Origin: a virus
Lineage: Duplodnaviria > Heunggongvirae > Uroviricota > Caudoviricetes
Virus record (IMG/VR): IMGVR_UViG_2874933748_000003
Reading direction: 5' to 3' (one strand)
Length of the DNA: 22,597 nucleotides
Shown: piece after piece, positions 1,445-18,260 of the stretch
Numbering within the stretch: position 1 is the first letter of the stretch
Layout: every line of letters begins with the position of its first letter
The notes under the pieces: model-generated
Database searches by the model: none
Told to the model about the DNA's origin: nothing
What the model saw: only the letters and a program-made list of their open reading frames with translations
Translations under genes and position numbers: made by a program

Positions 1445-1487
1445 TGAGGTGTACTGGCAATAGCGGACACTACCATTTGTTCTTTTT

Positions 1488-2302
1488 TTAAGCAGCCATC
1501 TGATGATATTTTTCCCTGAAGGCTGCCGGGGAGATATTCCCCAGACGAGAGTGACGACGCTGACGATTGTAGAAAATCTCAATGTATTCCCGTATTACTG
1601 AGATGGCTTCATCCCGGTTATTAAAACGATAGTGGCTCAGGCTCTCATTTTTCAGCGTTCCCCAGAAGCTTTCCATCGGAGCGTTGTCGTAACAGTTACC
1701 TTTACGCGACATTGATGTTTTCAGACCAGACTGCTCCTGTATGACCCGGTAATCGTATGCGCAGTACTGTGAACCTCGATCAGAGTGGTGGATTAGCCCG
1801 GCAGGTGGGCGCTGGCTCCTGAGCGCCATAAACAGGGCTTTACCTGTCAGCTCTTTTGTCATGCGCTCTCCATGGCGTAGCCGACAATTTCGCACGTATA
1901 AACATCTTTGATGCCAGCGAGGTACAACCATCCCTCCTGTGTGGCAACATACGTCAGGTCCGCCACCCAGACCTGATTTGGTGCTGTAGGAGCGAACGTC
2001 TGGTTCAGCAGATTTGGCGCAACTGGCAGATTGTGGTTCGAGTTCGTAGTCGCTCTGAACTTGCGTTTCTGCTTACAGCGTAGCCTTAGCTCCTTACGAA
2101 GACGTGCCAGTCGGTCACGACCAACGATGATGCCATTCTCTGCCAGCTCCGTCTGGAGCCGCCGGGTTCCATATGTTTCGCGAGTGCGGATATGTGCCAC
2201 CTTAATCTCCAGTTTTAGCCGCTCATCACTTTGTTTTCTGTCTGAGGGTTCATGCTGTACCCAGTTGTAATAACCGCTCTGGATACACCAAATACCTGAC
2301 AC
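1488..2302 (-). pseudogene. IS600 orfB transposase, frameshifted (split into ORFs 1859-2302 and 1488-1931)
   Basis: Translation matches intact OrfB of copy B; a G-run is one base shorter (GCCATGGAGAG versus GCCATGGGAGAG), breaking the frame. Confidence 0.8.
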
Positions 2303-2339
2303 ATCGCTTCAATGGGAAATTGTTGTCGCCATTGTTCGA

Positions 2340-2609
2340 TTAACGCGTATTTTTCAGCGACTCCTGTGCAAAATACGCTGTTGCTTTTTTTAATATATCT
2401 CGCTCAAGGCGAGCTTCATTTAACGCCTTACGCAGTTGCAGAATTTCAGATTCCAGTTCAGCCACCGTGCGGGAACCAGGAGTACCGAGCCCTTTTCTGG
2501 CGGCGGTAACCCATTGTCCTAAAGTGCCTTCAGGAAGAGATAATCGGGAAGCGCCTTCACTGATCGAAAGTTGATTTTCAAGAACCGTTCTGACAGCTTC
2601 AGCTTTGAA
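2340..2609 (-). pseudogene. IS600 orfA, missing its first ~10 codons
   Basis: Matches OrfA from KEFKAEAVRTV onward; canonical 7-A and 5-A tracts present; N-terminus replaced by IS21-family sequence. Confidence 0.75.
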
Positions 2610-3292
2610 CTCTTTAGAGGTATCGATACCGGCTGACCACACAGCGCTTCGGGAACGCTGTAACGATTACCACCAACCTCGATATAGCTGTCCCAGGACA
2701 CATGGCGGATATCGAAGTAACTGGTATCGAAGTCTGTATCCGGTAACGGCTGCAGATGTTCCTGCTCCAGCGCGAAGCGCTGTTCCGGCGTTTCTTTGAA
2801 CTGGCGAAGCTCCCGTTTGTCAGCCACATCGGCTATCCATTGCTCCAGTTGTTGATTGACATGAGTGAAGCTGTCGAACCTGCGGTACCGGACGAAGAAG
2901 TTCTCCTTGAGGTATTTCACCATCCGCTCAACCTTACCTTTTGTTCTGGCCCTGCGTGGACGGCATGCCCGTGGCAGGAAGTTATAGTGGTCAGCCAGCA
3001 ACAGGAATCCGGAGTTGAACACGACTTTCCCGTTGTTATTCTTCAGCACCGCAGCCTTCTGGTTATCAACCAGCACCGTTTTCACACAATCACCGAAGTA
3101 GCGGAAGGCGCGAACCAGTGATTCGTAGGTATGCTCAGCATCCTGTTTTGGTGCGGCGAAGACATGGAAGCTGCGGGAGAACCCCAGCGTATTAACCGCA
3201 AAGTTAACTTTGCACCGTTGCCCGGCAACCTCCACCTCAACTTCGCCCCAGTCATGCTGGAGCTGGTATCCAGGCTGAGTTTCGAAGCGAAC
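2610..3292 (-). pseudogene. istA: IS21-family transposase IstA, central/C-terminal segment
   Basis: Translation RFETQPGYQLQHDWGEVEVEVAGQRCKVNF...GNRYSVPEALCGQPVSI; ORF 2519-3235 in the track runs on into IS600 sequence. Confidence 0.7.
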
Positions 3293-3356
3293 TGAGGTAG
3301 CCTGAGTTTAACGGACACTCCTTCCTGAAATAGAATGGCATCAGAAGGAGCTAATA

Positions 3357-3656
3357 ATGAGCAGAAAAACCCAACGTTACTCTAAAGAGTTCAAAGCCGA
3401 AGCTGTCAGAACGGTTCCTGAAAATCAACTTTCGATCAGTGAAGGCGCTTCCCGATTATCTCTTCCTGAAGGCACTTTAGGACAATGGGTTACCGCCGCC
3501 AGAAAAGGGCTCGGTACTCCTGGTTCCCGCACGGTGGCTGAACTGGAATCTGAAATTCTGCAACTGCGTAAGGCGTTAAATGAAGCTCGCCTTGAGCGAG
3601 ATATATTAAAAAGCAACAGCGTATTTTGCACAGGAGTCGCTGAAAATACGCGTTAA
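3357..3656 (+). CDS. IS600 OrfA (variant C-terminus ...KSNSVFCTGVAENTR)
   Basis: 99-aa ORF with HTH-like N-terminus MSRKTQRYSKEFKAEAVRTV; first A-tract has 5 A and second has 4 A, versus 7 and 5 in copies A and C. Confidence 0.8.
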   Translation: MSRKTQRYSKEFKAEAVRTVPENQLSISEGASRLSLPEGTLGQWVTAARKGLGTPGSRTVAELESEILQLRKALNEARLERDILKSNSVFCTGVAENTR

Positions 3657-3693
3657 TCGAACAATGGCGACAACAATTTCCCATTGAAGCGAT

Positions 3694-4509
3694 GTGTCAG
3701 GTATTTGGTGTATCCGGAGCGGTTATTACAACTGGGTACAGCATGAACCCTCAGACAGAAAACAAAGTGATGAGCGGCTAAAACTGGAGATTAAGGTGGC
3801 ACATATCCGCACTCGCGAAACATATGGAACCCGGCGGCTCCAGACGGAGCTGGCAGAGAATGGCATCATCGTTGGTCGTGACCGACTGGCACGTCTTCGT
3901 AAGGAGCTAAGGCTACGCTGTAAGCAGAAACGCAAGTTCAGAGCGACTACGAACTCGAACCACAATCTGCCAGTTGCGCCAAATCTGCTGAACCAGACGT
4001 TCGCTCCTACAGCACCAAATCAGGTCTGGGTGGCGGACCTGACGTATGTTGCCACACAGGAGGGATGGTTGTACCTCGCTGGCATCAAAGATGTTTATAC
4101 GTGCGAAATTGTCGGCTACGCCATGGGAGAGCGCATGACAAAAGAGCTGACAGGTAAAGCCCTGTTTATGGCGCTCAGGAGCCAGCGCCCACCTGCCGGG
4201 CTAATCCACCACTCTGATCGAGGTTCACAGTACTGCGCATACGATTACCGGGTCATACAGGAGCAGTCTGGTCTGAAAACATCAATGTCGCGTAAAGGTA
4301 ACTGTTACGACAACGCTCCGATGGAAAGCTTCTGGGGAACGCTGAAAAATGAGAGCCTGAGCCACTATCGTTTTAATAACCGGGATGAAGCCATCTCAGT
4401 AATACGGGAATACATTGAGATTTTCTACAATCGTCAGCGTCGTCACTCTCGTCTGGGGAATATCTCCCCGGCAGCCTTCAGGGAAAAATATCATCAGATG
4501 GCTGCTTAA
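3694..4509 (+). CDS. IS600 OrfB transposase (DDE/integrase core), the only unbroken orfB in the window
   Basis: 271-aa ORF; both halves match the split orfB frames of copies A, D and E. Confidence 0.85.
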   Translation: MSGIWCIRSGYYNWVQHEPSDRKQSDERLKLEIKVAHIRTRETYGTRRLQTELAENGIIVGRDRLARLRKELRLRCKQKRKFRATTNSNHNLPVAPNLLNQTFAPTAPNQVWVADLTYVATQEGWLYLAGIKDVYTCEIVGYAMGERMTKELTGKALFMALRSQRPPAGLIHHSDRGSQYCAYDYRVIQEQSGLKTSMSRKGNCYDNAPMESFWGTLKNESLSHYRFNNRDEAISVIREYIEIFYNRQRRHSRLGNISPAAFREKYHQMAA

Positions 4510-4552
4510 AAAAAGAACAAATGGTAGTGTCCGCTATTGCCAGTACACCTCA

Positions 4553-5355: not shown

Positions 5356-5955
5356 TCAGAACTTATAACCGACACCCACGATGAAACCGTCAGTGCGCCA
5401 GTCACCACTGCCGGAACCTTCATAAGCAAGGTCAATGGCCACGGATTCGGTCGGGTTAAACTGCACGCCAGCCCCCCACGCCAGAGACGTGTTGCTGTGG
5501 CGACCGCCATCACTTCCGGTCAGCACATCGTGCGTTTTCCCCTTGTTGTCAGTTACGCGGAGATAATCCCCGGAGAAGGTCGACACACGGCTGTAAGCCA
5601 CGCCCGCCATCGCATACGCGCTGAACCATTCATTCACGCGCACAGACGGCCCCGCCATCACGCTGAACCAGCGGTTACGCACGGAATCCTCATGCCAGCG
5701 GGTATCGCTGTAATGCGTTTTTTGCTCATCTTCAGCGTTGGCATAACTGAATGACGTAATCAGCCCCAGCGTGTCCGTAAACTCATAACGGTATTTCACG
5801 TTAATGCCCTTCAGGTCATCGCTGCCTGGCATATCAGTATGGGTCTGAAGATACCCGGCGCTCAGCGTGGACTGATGTTCAGACGCCCATGCAGGCGCAC
5901 CGGATACGGCCAGACAGATGGCTGCGGACAAAATGGCTGCACAAACTTTACGCAT
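5356..5955 (-). CDS. lom: Lom-like outer membrane protein (Ail/Lom family), a lambda moron
   Basis: 199-aa ORF with signal peptide and C-terminal ...GVGYKF beta-barrel ending; positioned between J and stf as in lambda. Confidence 0.9.
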   Translation of the reverse strand: MRKVCAAILSAAICLAVSGAPAWASEHQSTLSAGYLQTHTDMPGSDDLKGINVKYRYEFTDTLGLITSFSYANAEDEQKTHYSDTRWHEDSVRNRWFSVMAGPSVRVNEWFSAYAMAGVAYSRVSTFSGDYLRVTDNKGKTHDVLTGSDGGRHSNTSLAWGAGVQFNPTESVAIDLAYEGSGSGDWRTDGFIVGVGYKF

Positions 5956-12226: not shown

Positions 12227-12705
12227 TGAGGTAGCCTGAGTTTAACGGACACTCCTTCCTGAAATAGAATGGCATCAGAAGGAGCTAATAATGAGCAGAA
12301 AAACCCAACGTTACTCTAAAGAGTTCAAAGCCGAAGCTGTCAGAACGGTTCCTGAAAATCAACTTTCGATCAGTGAAGGCGCTTCCCGATTATCTCTTCC
12401 TGAAGGCACTTTAGGACAATGGGTTACCGCCGCCAGAAAAGGGCTCGGTACTCCTGGTTCCCGCACGGTGGCTGAACTGGAATCTGAAATTCTGCAACTG
12501 CGTAAGGCGTTAAATGAAGCTCGCCTTGAGCGAGATATATTAAAAAAAGCAACAGCGTATTTTGCACAGGAGTCGCTGAAAAATACGCGTTAATCGAACA
12601 ATGGCGACAACAATTTCCCATTGAAGCGATGTGTCAGGTATTTGGTGTATCCAGGAGCGGTTATTACAACTGGGTACAGCATGAACCCTCAGACAGAAAA
12701 CAAAG
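12227..12705 (+). mobile_element. IS600 copy C, left ~480 bp only (IRL, orfA, start of orfB)
   Basis: TGAGGTAGCCTGAG at 12227; sequence runs to CAAAGTGA inside orfB, then the left end of copy D begins. Confidence 0.85.
12291..12593 (+). CDS. IS600 OrfA, canonical 100-aa form with the A7 slippery tract
   Basis: Ends ...RDILKKATAYFAQESLKNTR; 7-A and 5-A tracts; reading the minus-one frame from the A7 tract gives the OrfB N-terminus. Confidence 0.85.
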   Translation: MSRKTQRYSKEFKAEAVRTVPENQLSISEGASRLSLPEGTLGQWVTAARKGLGTPGSRTVAELESEILQLRKALNEARLERDILKKATAYFAQESLKNTR

Positions 12706-12769
12706 TGAGGTAGCCTGAGTTTAACGGACACTCCTTCCTGAAATAGAATGGCATCAGAAGGAGCTAATA

Positions 12770-13057
12770 ATGAGCAGAAAAACCCAACGTTACTCTAAAG
12801 AGTTCAAAGCCGAAGCTGTCAGAACGGTTCTTGAAAATCAACTTTCGATCAGTGAAGGCGCTTCCCGATTATCTCTTCCTGAAGGCACTTTAGGACAATG
12901 GGTTACCGCCGCCAGAAAAGGGCTCGGTACTCCTGGTTCCCGCACGGTGGCTGAACTGGAATCTGAAATTCTGCAACTGCGTAAGGCGTTAAATGAAGCT
13001 CGCCTTGAGCGAGATATATTAAAAAAGCAACAGCGTATTTTGCACAGGAGTCGCTGA
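12770..13057 (+). pseudogene. IS600 orfA with altered C-terminus (6-A tract)
   Basis: 95-aa ORF ending ...RDILKKQQRILHRSR; A-tract is one base shorter than in copy C. Confidence 0.7.
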
Positions 13058-13108
13058 AAAATACGCGTTAATCGAACAATGGCGACAACAATTTCCCATT
13101 GAAGCGAT

Positions 13109-13923
13109 GTGTCAGGTATTTGGTGTATCCGGGGCGGTTATTACAACTGGGTACAGCATGAACCCTCAGACAGAAAACAAAGTGATGAGCGGCTAAAACT
13201 GGAGATTAAGGTGGCACATATCCGCACTCGCGAAACATATGGAACCCGGCGGCTCCAGACGGAGCTGGCAGAGAATGGCATCATCGTTGGTCGTGACCGA
13301 CTGGCACGTCTTCGTAAGGAGCTAAGGCTACGCTGTAAGCAGAAACGCAAGTTCAGAGCGACTACGAACTCGAACCACAATCTGCCAGTTGCGCCAAATC
13401 TGCTGAACCAGACGTTCGCTCCTACAGCACCAAATCAGGTCTGGGTGGCGGACCTGACGTATGTTGCCACACAGGAGGGATGGTTGTACCTCGCTGGCAT
13501 CAAAGATGTTTATACGTGCGAAATTGTCGGCTACGCCATGGGAGAGCGCATGACAAAGAGCTGACAGGTAAAGCCCTGTTTATGGCGCTCAGGAGCCAGC
13601 GCCCACCTGCCGGGCTAATCCACCACTCTGATCGAGGTTCACAGTACTGCGCATACGATTACCGGGTCATACAGGAGCAGTCTGGTCTGAAAACATCAAT
13701 GTCGCGTAAAGGTAACTGTTACGACAACGCTCCGATGGAAAGCTTCTGGGGAACGCTGAAAAATGAGAGCCTGAGCCACTATCGTTTTAATAACCGGGAT
13801 GAAGCCATCTCAGTAATACGGGAATACATTGAGATTTTCTACAATCGTCAGCGTCGTCACTCTCGTCTGGGGAATATCTCCCCGGCAGCCTTCAGGGAAA
13901 AATATCATCAGATGGCTGCTTAA
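13109..13923 (+). pseudogene. IS600 orfB, frameshifted (ORFs 13109-13564 and 13480-13923)
   Basis: GACAAAGAGCTGAC has 3 A where the intact copy B has 4. Confidence 0.75.
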
Positions 13924-14016
13924 AAAAAGAACAAATGGTAGTGTCCGCTATTGCCAGTACACCTCACACTCTATCCAACAAACCACCCACAGTTAATCGG
14001 AATAAAAGCAGAGTGC

Positions 14017-14148: not shown

Positions 14149-14223
<75 letters not shown>

Positions 14224-14226
14224 ATA

Positions 14227-14302
<76 letters not shown>

Positions 14303-14304
14303 GC

Positions 14305-14381
14305 TGGCCCACCACCGAGGACTCGAACCTCGCACCGTCAACTTAGAAGGTTGATGCTCTATCCGGATGAGCTAGTGGTGG
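14305..14381 (-). tRNA. tRNA-Arg (anticodon UCU), with an unusual C1-G72 start to the acceptor stem
   Basis: Reverse complement CCACCACTAGCTCATCCGGATAGAGCATCAACCTTCTAAGTTGACGGTGCGAGGTTCGAGTCCTCGGTGGTGGGCCA; anticodon stem TCAAC/GTTGA, loop CTTCTAA. Confidence 0.8.
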
Positions 14382-14382
14382 T

Positions 14383-14459
14383 TGGTGGCCCTTGCTGGAC
14401 TTGAACCAGCGACCTGGCGATTATGAGTCGCTCGCTCTGACCAACTGAGCTAAAGGGCC
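14383..14459 (-). tRNA. tRNA with anticodon CAU, probably Ile2 (lysidine) type rather than elongator Met
   Basis: Reverse complement GGCCCTTTAGCTCAGTTGGTCAGAGCGAGCGACTCATAATCGCCAGGTCGCTGGTTCAAGTCCAGCAAGGGCCACCA; anticodon arm GCGACTCATAATCGC resembles E. coli ileX-type tRNAs as I recall them. Confidence 0.8.
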
Positions 14460-16373: not shown

Positions 16374-16479
16374 GATGCCTCCAGGTTTATAAGTACAAAC
16401 GGTTATATCAACATAGAGACAAAAGGTGATGCTGCCAACTTACTGATTTAGTGTATGATCGTGTTTTTGAGGTGCTCCA

Positions 16480-16755
16480 GTGGCTTCTGTTTCTATCAGC
16501 TGTCCCTCCTGTTCAGCTACTGACGGGGTGGTGCGTAACGGCAAAAGCACTGCCGGACATCAGCGCTATCTCTGCTCTCACTGCCGTAAAACATGGCAAC
16601 TGCAGTTCACTTACACCGCTTCCCAACCCGGTACGCACCAGAAAATCATTGATATGGCCATGAATGGCGTTGGATGCCGGGCAACTGCACGCATTATGGG
16701 CGTTGGCCTCAACACGATTTTACGTCACTTAAAAAACTCAGGCCGCAGTCGGTAA
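16480..16755 (+). CDS. insA: IS1 InsA
   Basis: 91-aa [46 protein letters not shown]. Confidence 0.9.
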
Positions 16756-17177
16756 CCTCGCGCATACAGCCGGGCAGTGACGTCATCGTCTGCGCGGAAA
16801 TGGACGAACAGTGGGGCTATGTCGGGGCTAAATCGCGCCAGCGCTGGCTGTTTTACGCGTATGACAGTCTCCGGAAGACGGTTGTTGCGCACGTATTCGG
16901 TGAACGCACTATGGCGACGCTGGGGCGTCTTATGAGCCTGCTGTCACCCTTTGACGTGGTGATATGGATGACGGATGGCTGGCCGCTGTATGAATCCCGC
17001 CTGAAGGGAAAGCTGCACGTAATCAGCAAGCGATATACGCAGCGAATTGAGCGGCATAACCTGAATCTGAGGCAGCACCTGGCACGGCTGGGACGGAAGT
17101 CGCTGTCGTTCTCAAAATCGGTGGAGCTGCATGACAAAGTCATCGGGCATTATCTGAACATAAAACACTATCAATAA
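16674..17177 (+). CDS. insB: IS1 InsB frame (expressed as the InsAB-prime fusion by frameshifting)
   Basis: 167-aa ORF overlapping insA in the minus-one frame. Confidence 0.9.
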
Positions 17178-17284
17178 GTTGGAGTCATTACCAAAAAAAC
17201 CGCCGAAACGGGTTAAGTGCGGGTGCGTTGAGGATGCCTGACACATCAAAGGTGGCGGGAGATTACTCTCCCGCCTGGTCACTC

Positions 17285-17440
17285 TTACTCTCTAGATTCG
17301 TAGTCTACGAAAACAGCGACCTCCGTCTGGCCGATTCGGATTCGTACCTCGCAGAGGTCTTTCCTCGTTACCAGTGCCGTCACAATGACGGTTAAACAGA
17401 TGACGATCAGGGCGATTAACATCGCCTTTTGCTGCTTCAT
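17285..17440 (-). CDS. hok: Hok/Gef family membrane toxin (HokD/RelF-like)
   Basis: MKQQKAMLIALIVICLTVIVTALVTRKDLCEVRIRIGQTEVAVFVDYESRE; ATG at 17440 preceded by AAGGAG; a GGCGGGA/TCCCGCC stem-loop lies just 3-prime of the stop. Confidence 0.85.
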   Translation of the reverse strand: MKQQKAMLIALIVICLTVIVTALVTRKDLCEVRIRIGQTEVAVFVDYESRE

Positions 17441-17783
17441 AGCCTGCTTCTCCTTGCCTTTCGGCACGTAAGAGGCTAACCTACATTTGTGAGACATAGA
17501 TTGGGCCTCAGATTAATGTTAAGCGTCTTGCAGGACGCGTAATGTTAACTGGGGCTTTTCTCTGTCTGCCTTACAGTGACATACCCGAGGCAGACAGCCT
17601 CAAGCACCCGCAGCAATCTTACCGACACCGATAAGAAAACGCTATTTTTTATTGCCAGCACCATCTATCCAGGCTAGTTTATCTGCGTCAGAACGGCGCA
17701 ATGCGCTCGCCTGAGATACGTTTACTTGCCATGGTAACAACAGGTAACGGCAATTGCTGTTTCTGTTTTGTTTCCTTCAAAAA

Positions 17784-17817
17784 CCCCGGACCATCAATCC
17801 GGGGTTTTTGTTTGTTA
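17784..17817. terminator. Bidirectional intrinsic terminator
   Basis: CCCCGGA-CCATCAA-TCCGGGG flanked by an A-run and TTTTTGTTTGTT; lies 3-prime of the DUF551 gene on the minus strand. Confidence 0.6.
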
Positions 17818-17894
17818 ACCCCAACGGCAAATCGAATACACCACCAGCGCCACCGCCATCGCAATTCCTACCGTGGTGAATGCCTCAGGCCAGG

Positions 17895-18260
17895 TCATTG
17901 ATTCACCTCCTGCGGTGGTTCCGGTAGCGGCATCCAGTGAGTTGAGCTCTCTACTTCAACGCCGTCTTTGTCCACAAAAGCCATCTTATTCCCGCCACGA
18001 GTGGGGCAAAAAACCTTATCCCAGGAACCGGGGAATACATTCCCGAGATCATCGAGAAGAATCACATCGCAATATTCAGCAGGAACTGCATCACTACAGC
18101 TTATCCAGCCAGCCGGAGCTACCGGAGAGTTGCCAGCCTTACGCATGGCCATTTCCACGATTTCAACCATATCTCCTGGTGGAATTTTACAAAGTTGCCC
18201 AATACATTTCTGCTGCCTGGCATATTCGAGAATGTGCTCCAGTTTGGTTCGATTAATCAT
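17895..18260 (-). CDS. DUF551-like phage protein
   Basis: 121-aa ORF with C-terminal ...FCPTRGGNKMAFVDKDGVEVESSTHWMPLPEPP motif typical of DUF551; start overlaps the stop of the upstream gene. Confidence 0.55.
   Translation of the reverse strand: MINRTKLEHILEYARQQKCIGQLCKIPPGDMVEIVEMAMRKAGNSPVAPAGWISCSDAVPAEYCDVILLDDLGNVFPGSWDKVFCPTRGGNKMAFVDKDGVEVESSTHWMPLPEPPQEVNQ

Follow-up and report, generated by a model that had tools for sequence, protein, structure and literature searches.

A probable complete hok/mok/sok toxin–antitoxin cassette beside an IS1 copy in a decayed lambdoid prophage of Shigella sonnei

Positions 17193–17621 of the window, by which we mean the whole 22,597-nucleotide stretch of caudoviral DNA analysed here (IMG/VR record IMGVR_UViG_2874933748_000003), very probably constitute a complete hok/mok/sok type I toxin–antitoxin cassette, the Shigella sonnei allele of the hokW/mokW/sokW type, carried by a lambdoid prophage. 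The host element is a decayed lambda-like prophage; its repeated elements in the window are IS1, in two copies, and IS600, in several. The Rfam covariance model RF01794 (‘sok’) matches the minus strand at 17435–17609 over its entire length (model positions 1–157 of 157), with a score of 118.1 bits and an E value of 1e-26; the gathering score of the model is 59 bits. Comparable scores are obtained at hokC of K-12 (118 bits), at hokW of 933W, in Rac and at an R1-like plasmid locus (87 bits). Over 405 nt, the locus shares 92.7% nucleotide identity with phages 933W and VT2-Sakai; its identity to an IS1-free Escherichia coli allele, in strain FDAARGOS_944, is 99.6–99.7%. A first-pass annotation of the same DNA had described a relF-like toxin with ‘no sok-like RNA’. 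Its observations on the sequence were mostly right, but this key interpretation was wrong: the covariance search, with its full-length match, speaks against the absence of Sok. Both the kind of element and its location are familiar, and the biology is already known. The features of the locus are collected in Table 1.

Table 1. Annotated and predicted features of the cassette and the adjoining insertion sequence, in window coordinates.
Feature	Position	Strand	Description
Putative hok promoter, -10 TAAGAT	17616–17621	-	6 nt ahead of the predicted +1 at 17609; putative assignment
Full-length hok mRNA (predicted)	17193–17609	-	about 410–417 nt: leader, mok/hok, 3' UTR, fbi, terminator
tac element, 5' GGGUGCUUGAGG	17598–17609	-	from predicted folds; element names after PMC9841398
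5' leader hairpin	17562–17597	-	arms 17562–17571 and 17588–17597; between tac and ucb; conserved
ucb (anti-SD of mok), AAGCCCC	17551–17557	-	from predicted folds
Putative Sok antisense RNA gene	17489–17559	+	71 nt; transferred from the sokW annotation; overlaps the mok start codon by 9 nt
Sok promoter (predicted)	17454–17482	+	-35 TTGCCT at 17454–17459, 17-nt spacer, -10 TAACCT at 17477–17482
mok frame	17285–17497	-	70 codons; ATG at 17497; in frame with hok, common stop codon
hok toxin gene	17285–17440	-	51 aa; ATG at 17440, stop at 17285–17287; T36I variant
3' UTR hairpin, stable, GGCGGGAGA / UCUCCCGCC	17254–17275	-	compensated changes in other loci
fbi element, CCUCAACGCACCC	17221–17233	-	kept in 933W, Rac and others
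hok terminator (predicted)	17193–17212	-	short hairpin 17200–17212; U7 run 17193–17199 touching IS1
IS1 copy 1	16425–17192	+	768 bp; insA and insB' frames intact (91 aa, 167 aa); convergent with hok

The toxin gene is intact and has a good ribosome-binding site, as the first-pass annotation had observed: an AAGGAG at 17450–17455 lies 9 nt ahead of the ATG. The product, MKQQKAMLIALIVICLTVIVTALVTRKDLCEVRIRIGQTEVAVFVDYESRE, has the length of about 50 residues that is typical of Hok/Gef toxins, and Pfam family PF01848 is recorded for a protein identical to it. Under the name Hok/Gef family [Shigella sonnei], exactly this protein is recorded on at least 1000 contigs. Three Hok genes were counted in strain Ss046 in a published survey (PMC2887945).

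The hok frame is extended upstream by 19 codons (57 nt) to the mok ATG, which is preceded at a distance of 7 nt by a GAGG at 17506–17509, so that mok has its own Shine–Dalgarno sequence (SD), as in the hok/sok family. In the PHROG collection the frame matches family 251, ‘MokW-like host killing’, with an E value of 1e-31; a 27-aa ORF at 17815–17898 gave no family in the PHROG search. The in-frame extension had been noticed before, with the advice to compare it with the expected mok layout. It is the usual layout of the subfamily and no anomaly: it is also found in mokC/hokC and mokW/hokW, the offset is 57 nt in eight of the nine loci compared, and among the 149 protein records retrieved, 98 have a length of 70 aa. 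The in-frame mok ATG is the start that gene callers commonly choose. The ninth locus, of Rac type, has an offset of 58 nt owing to a one-base insertion. Published work concludes that what counts is the act of translating mok as far as the start of hok, and not the Mok product (PMC9841398); the in-frame arrangement agrees with this.

The hok mRNA region is covered by the alignment to 933W, Rac, K-12 hokC and the R1-like locus, and the RF01794 model begins at 17609, the predicted +1. We infer the position of the hok promoter from the TAAGAT hexamer, whose spacing to the predicted +1 agrees with that of the -10 in R1 hok, as judged from the R1-like locus; in R1, the -10 TATGAT spans -12 to -7 (PMC9841398). 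TAAGAT is aligned with TAGAAT and TATAAT of other loci. The -35 is poor, with TAGCGT at 17639–17644 matching two of six positions.

Three states are predicted for this RNA. The minimum-energy fold of the full-length molecule (17609 to 17194) has an energy of -163.1 kcal/mol (z = -7.4); in it, tac pairs with fbi through 12 base pairs with one bulge, and ucb pairs with the mok SD region. When the last 40 nt or so are omitted, tac pairs with ucb instead, and the mok SD is placed in a small hairpin with dcb (GUCUCA). In the consensus fold of the leader alone, calculated for seven loci, tac pairs with the adjacent downstream sequence, forming a metastable hairpin. These predicted states match the published model of R1 (PMC9841398), and the switch from tac/fbi to tac/ucb pairing that marks the hok/sok family is thereby reproduced in silico. 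The stable hairpin in the 3' UTR would be the stop for 3' trimming.

Inside the leader, a 9-bp inverted repeat, CTGTCTGCC and GGCAGACAG, had been reported as a fold-back control. The repeat is real, at 17562–17570 and 17589–17597, one base lower than first given, but its role is a different one: it forms the leader hairpin between tac and ucb, which is a helix of the Rfam model, and the fold-back element fbi sits in the 3' UTR. The hairpin is paired in 95.7% of cells over seven hok loci, and one of its pairs varies as G-C, A-U, U-A and G-U across them. A slide control gave 90.6% paired compared with at most 49%. The covariation score, calculated from seven leaders in which most pairs are invariant, is reached by 48 of 500 shuffles and is not significant. 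Both tac and ucb are invariant in the seven loci, so the tac/ucb helix gives no covariation signal. The seven leaders thus lend the helices thin support, consisting of the slide control and the one compensated pair. Our argument is built on homology and on the score of the Rfam model, and not on covariation.

On the opposite strand, we place the antitoxin gene by transfer from sokW, which is annotated at 677–747 in our extracts of 933W and VT2-Sakai. Across this part the alignment to both phages runs in register with the window, without gaps, and therefore the mok, hok and Sok annotations transfer directly. The predicted fold of the Sok RNA has a single-stranded 5' tail of 14 nt, a long hairpin and then GGGGCUUUU at the 3' end, with an energy of -29.2 kcal/mol (z = -5.3). 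The promoter stretch is identical to that of sokW from 933W in the alignment. Its -10 is a weak match, agreeing in three of six positions. Precisely this TAACCT is altered by the primers YO-421/422 of the ‘pro-less’ sokW construct, in which antitoxin activity is abolished and which is partially rescued by sokW supplied in trans (PMC8621323). [quoted passage not shown] A generic promoter scan of 17100–17950 returned no sigma-70-like site. We give this negative result no weight because the thresholds of the scan also exclude the validated sokW hexamers.

The strand of the Rfam match calls for care. The match ends at the hok AUG, and in K-12 the model falls on the strand of hokC while sokC is annotated on the opposite one. 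RF01794 therefore describes the leader of the hok mRNA, with the Sok antisense gene inside it, and Rfam ‘sok’ matches are to be read as lying on the hok strand, with Sok itself on the other strand within the match. Judged by homology to sokW, the identical promoter and the predicted tail-plus-hairpin fold, the locus carries the Sok antisense gene of the hok/sok family.

On the 3' side of hok lies the first of the two IS1 copies. Its ends read GGTGATGCTGCCAAC... on one side and ...GTTGGAGTCATTACC on the other, and its length, inverted repeats and frames are those of IS1; Pfam IS1 domains are recorded in the S. sonnei loci. Simple IS1 insertions are bordered by directly repeated target DNA, usually of 9 bp. 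Copy 2 (19941–20708) has AACTCATCTT on both sides. At copy 1 the 9-bp flanks are GAGACAAAA and AAAAAAACC, with no target duplication, and 92 bp separate the end of its right inverted repeat from the hok stop; both the abutment of a Hok/Gef locus by such an IS1 and the distance of about 90 bp had been recognised correctly.

Comparison with relatives shows what is missing. In the closest IS1-free relative, E. coli FDAARGOS_944, the match to the window runs as far as 16424 on the left side and resumes at about 17193 on the right side; the two flanks map to positions 5864 and 5997 of our extract from this genome. Between them the relative has about 135 bp of AT-rich, non-coding DNA, which is missing at the left end of IS1 copy 1. 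Using 500 bp on each side as query, we found 141 E. coli genomes with both flanks in order, usually 132–135 bp apart among the full-length matches listed. A few of the genomes listed, H108 and H126 among them, have a gene for a Doc-family toxin inserted in the spacer. Close relatives have neither relBE nor any other gene there. The loss linked to IS1 is thus small, a non-coding spacer of about 135 bp and no genes. DNA has indeed been lost at this IS1, as had been proposed. The absence of relBE had also been noted correctly, and it is irrelevant, since relBE is equally lacking at this site in close relatives. When the spacer of FDAARGOS_944 was scanned for promoters, candidates came up on the plus strand only, at about chance level, and we claim no promoter loss.

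The six S. sonnei loci that we read, Ss046 (CP000038) included, all carry an identical junction between hok and IS1. An exact-match scan of genome contigs for this junction gave no match, and the S. sonnei source was recognised by way of the exact Hok protein. Junction-spanning searches of E. coli complete genomes did not find the junction either. E. coli 2018-11-3CC has an independent IS1 that lies 5 nt further out from the hok terminator, and in E. coli PI7 an IS1 is about 240 nt away.

The simplest origin of the missing duplication and spacer is an adjacent deletion by IS1. Recombination between two IS1 copies, inserted either some 135 bp from each other or in separate prophages, would also yield a hybrid element with unrelated flanks, and we regard it as possible but rather doubtful. 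S. sonnei has many IS1 copies, and this one does take part in rearrangements: in one genome its far side is joined to genes of a Mu-like prophage. Identity to FDAARGOS_944 is also lower further left (94.9%) than across hok and the genes beyond (99.7%). However, the 500 bp on either side of the element match the same relatives in the same order and orientation (98.8% overall to FDAARGOS_944), and no foreign flank is seen. A joint formed by recombination between prophages, to which the contrast in identity might have pointed, was rejected on the same ground, because the 500 bp immediately to the left match these relatives well. Adjacent deletion and IS1–IS1 recombination give the same end product, and the two look alike by sequence alone.

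Whichever route was taken, the cassette itself was spared. Where FDAARGOS_944 has a run of U8, IS1 abuts one of U7, which leaves fbi and the hairpin of the terminator unharmed. Compared with most relatives, the terminator has a weaker stem, other loci having the stronger CCCGC-UUCG-GCGGG; it is equally weak in the IS1-free relative. Given this weak stem, we assume that the hok mRNA ends at the U7 run.

A structurally complete cassette could still be silent in S. sonnei, a relic in a decaying, IS-ridden prophage, and we think this unlikely. Possible causes of silence would be a non-toxic Hok T36I, a dead hok promoter, or disturbance of the 3' end by the weak terminator and IS1. Isoleucine at position 36 is a minority residue, present in 16 of 130 homologues where 112 have threonine, the hok promoter has a poor -35, the stem of the terminator is weakened, and the prophage carries the two IS1 and several IS600 copies. 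Precedents exist as well, since chromosomal hok loci are reported as degenerate in some strains (PMC2887945) and IS186 interrupts hokC of K-12 at 20 bp beyond the stop. On the other hand, all RNA elements are intact, and the near-identity to the IS1-free E. coli allele extends over the cassette. I36 recurs in several distinct hok backgrounds, which argues that it is at least tolerated. The main text of the FASTBAC-Seq paper holds no loss-of-function data for D37 of R1 Hok, the equivalent residue. The weak terminator and promoter are common to the IS1-free relative, and IS1 lies outside the mRNA here, unlike in the K-12 cases.

We also considered whether IS1, placed against the weak U-run and transcribed towards hok, alters the 3' end of the hok mRNA or supplies a second antisense RNA over fbi and the 3' UTR. 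This is very improbable. If it were true, IS1 would shift the timing of hok activation while leaving the locus undisrupted, a mode of influence unlike that in K-12, where insertion sequences have truncated hok loci. The IS1 of 2018-11-3CC, 5 nt from another hok terminator, hints that such placement recurs. IS1 prefers AT-rich DNA, and this explains the recurrence equally well.

That the locus is an orphan toxin of hokD/relF type, whose Sok and relBE partners were lost, possibly through an IS1 deletion, or were never present, is extremely improbable: the generic promoter scan without any site, the lack of relBE in the window and the ‘HokD’ label given by PGAP to close homologues (a label that derives from protein similarity only) would fit it, but the RF01794 match, the alignment to sokW and the limited homology to hokD refute it, as the whole leader is present, the putative Sok gene and its -35 and -10 match validated sokW (PMC8621323), and IS1 is found on the 3' side of hok, opposite to the side that relBE occupies in Qin, at a site where relatives have no more than a 132–135 bp spacer. 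An identifiable Sok gene with an intact promoter is also what the first-pass annotation had itself named as refuting its reading, and by homology such a gene is present.

Returning to the complete cassette, we take its transcription, toxicity and mode of action from homology with hok/sok of R1 and hokW/sokW of Sp5. A weak promoter with the -10 TAAGAT would produce a hok mRNA of about 410 nt. In this transcript, tac (GGGUGCUUGAGG) would pair with fbi (CCUCAACGCACCC) and the ucb box would hold the mok SD, leaving the mRNA untranslated and unbound by Sok. Slow trimming from the 3' end would take off fbi, upon which tac would pair again with ucb and the mok SD would shift into the hairpin with dcb. 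Translation of mok could then start at 17497, 57 nt upstream and in frame, and would open the hok start. Sok, about 71 nt long and expressed on the plus strand (17489–17559) from TTGCCT-17-TAACCT, would pair with the processed mRNA around the start of mok and thereby trigger its destruction. Were Sok to decay and not be replaced, Hok would be made and would damage the inner membrane. All elements of the cassette are intact, and IS1 sits directly past the terminator U-run, where the AT-rich spacer of about 135 bp was lost, most simply by adjacent deletion. In S. sonnei the module might assist lysis upon induction, as with hokW, or stabilise what remains of the prophage, or have no role.

In practical terms, the locus should be annotated as a complete hok/mok/sok module that includes a gene for Sok RNA, and not as an orphan ‘HokD’. 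The missing target duplication of IS1 marks the loss of a 135-bp spacer, fixed in the S. sonnei genomes examined, and not a loss of genes. Beyond correct annotation, the importance of these results is small.

Among known systems, hokW/mokW/sokW of 933W and VT2-Sakai (Sp5) resembles the cassette most fully. As here, a Hok of 51 aa and an in-frame Mok of 70 aa share a stop, sokW is 71 nt long, lies on the opposite strand and overlaps the mok start by 9 nt, the Sok -35 and -10, tac and fbi are the same, and the carriers are lambdoid prophages. Three residues of Hok differ, the protein here having T36I and a C-terminal RE instead of EK. The 5' tail of Sok and the first mok codons also differ at several positions, which may limit cross-talk. 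Upstream of the -10, the hok promoter region is unrelated to that of 933W, whose 3' end diverges past fbi. The position in the phage map is another one, and here IS1 follows the terminator.

The hok/mok/sok locus of R1 (parB) has the same architecture, with tac, ucb, the mok SD, dcb, fbi and a Sok antisense to the mok start. Its sequence similarity is distant only, and it resides on a plasmid, whereas the cassette described here belongs to a prophage. In R1 the mok ATG (116–118) and the hok ATG (174–176) are 58 nt apart and out of frame (PMC9841398), compared with 57 nt in frame here. With respect to the Rfam consensus, the Sok hairpin of our locus has a 16-nt insertion.

hokD (relF) of the K-12 Qin prophage, also lambdoid, shares hok, the hok SD, the 3' UTR hairpin, fbi and the terminator with our locus, at 92% identity over 261 nt. 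The homology is limited to window positions 17194–17454 and stops at the hok SD; in Qin, relE and relB take the place of the leader, the mok start, the Sok gene and the hok promoter, and the hokD region gives no RF01794 match. Since hokD shares only the SD, coding region and 3' UTR and lacks a match to the model, we regard our locus as the complete form and hokD as the truncated one. The alignment to hokD/relF therefore does not bear out a relF-like locus: the arrangement of that type, with hok directly after relBE and no leader, mok start or Sok, is not found here.

hokC/mokC/sokC (gef) of K-12 likewise has an in-frame mok that is 19 codons longer than hok and a Sok that overlaps the mok start by 9 nt, and there too an insertion sequence adjoins the 3' side of hok. 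In hokC, the IS186 20 bp past the stop removes fbi and the terminator. In contrast, the IS1 described here lies 92 bp past the stop and beyond the terminator, and thus takes nothing from the hok mRNA.

The spacer that separates the 70-aa phrog_1813 gene from the hok terminator looks like a site where morons insert. In some E. coli relatives, AH19B041, M19 and M15 (H108, H126 and H127), this same spacer has an inserted gene for a type II toxin of the Doc (death-on-curing) family. The AT-rich spot downstream of hok also seems to be a repeated landing site for IS1. Independent IS1 insertions in the same orientation lie downstream of other hokD-like loci in E. coli 2018-11-3CC (L008), where the element adjoins a truncated recombinase gene, and in E. 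coli PI7 (L009). S. sonnei CP151349 (L012, 3218 onward) carries the hok-IS1 junction as in the window. On the far side of this IS1, Mu-like transposase genes stand in place of the nin-region genes, a sign that IS1 has mediated a rearrangement in that strain.

Features located in the window and at related loci
Feature	Location	Strand	Remark
IS600 copies and part-copies	window 1445-2619, 3293-4552, 12227-13966, 20848-22106		99.4% to annotated IS600
Four prophage tRNA genes	window 14149-14459	-	Gly-TCC, Thr-TGT, Arg-TCT, CAT-anticodon tRNA
RF01794 match	window 17435-17609	-	Rfam
RF01794 match	locus L003 402-554		Rfam
27-aa hydrophobic ORF	window 17815-17898	-	MTWPEAFTTVGIAMAVALVVYSICRWG
IS1 near hokD-like locus	L008 (E. 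coli 2018-11-3CC, NZ_AP021895) 1555-1668		just 5 nt past terminator T-run
IS1 near hokD-like locus	L009 (E. coli PI7) 1555-1908		~240 nt away

Together, the several IS600 copies or part-copies and the two IS1 copies mark the prophage as heavily degraded. The third IS600 interval in the table holds an overlapping or partly duplicated pair, and its end at 13966 lies a short way left of the tRNA cluster. In that cluster, the CAT-anticodon tRNA is annotated as Ile in a relative but is called Met by ARAGORN. IS1 copy 2 is flanked by a 10-bp repeat, AACTCATCTT (window 19932-19940 and 20709-20718); the IS1 flanking repeat is usually 9 bp. This copy breaks the 5' end of a gene whose counterpart in E. 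coli FDAARGOS_944 is intact (L001 8407-8763).

Within hok, codon 36 reads ATC in place of the ACC of the closest E. coli allele (window 17333-17335), giving Hok T36I. Threonine is the majority residue at this position (112 versus 16 with isoleucine), and isoleucine is found in several unrelated hok backgrounds. The terminator stem (window 17200-17212) is of a weakened form, CCCGU...GCGG, common to the window and FDAARGOS_944; at the other hok loci compared (L006, L002 and L009) it is CCCGC-UUCG-GCGGG.

The sense of the Rfam model RF01794, named 'sok antitoxin', is that of the hok mRNA leader, and the model ends at the hok AUG. Its matches accordingly sit on the hok strand, with the actual Sok gene inside the match on the opposite strand. 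The same holds in K-12, where the match is on the hokC strand and sokC is annotated on the other.

The start of the 27-aa ORF overlaps the stop of the DUF551 gene as ATGA, and a strong GC-rich hairpin (window 17778-17810) follows the ORF. It had no match in a PHROG search and is without annotation in the relatives. Its start sequence is contained in a cloning primer of the study of hokW/sokW of Sp5 (PMC8621323), so the ORF lies near hokW in Sp5 as well.
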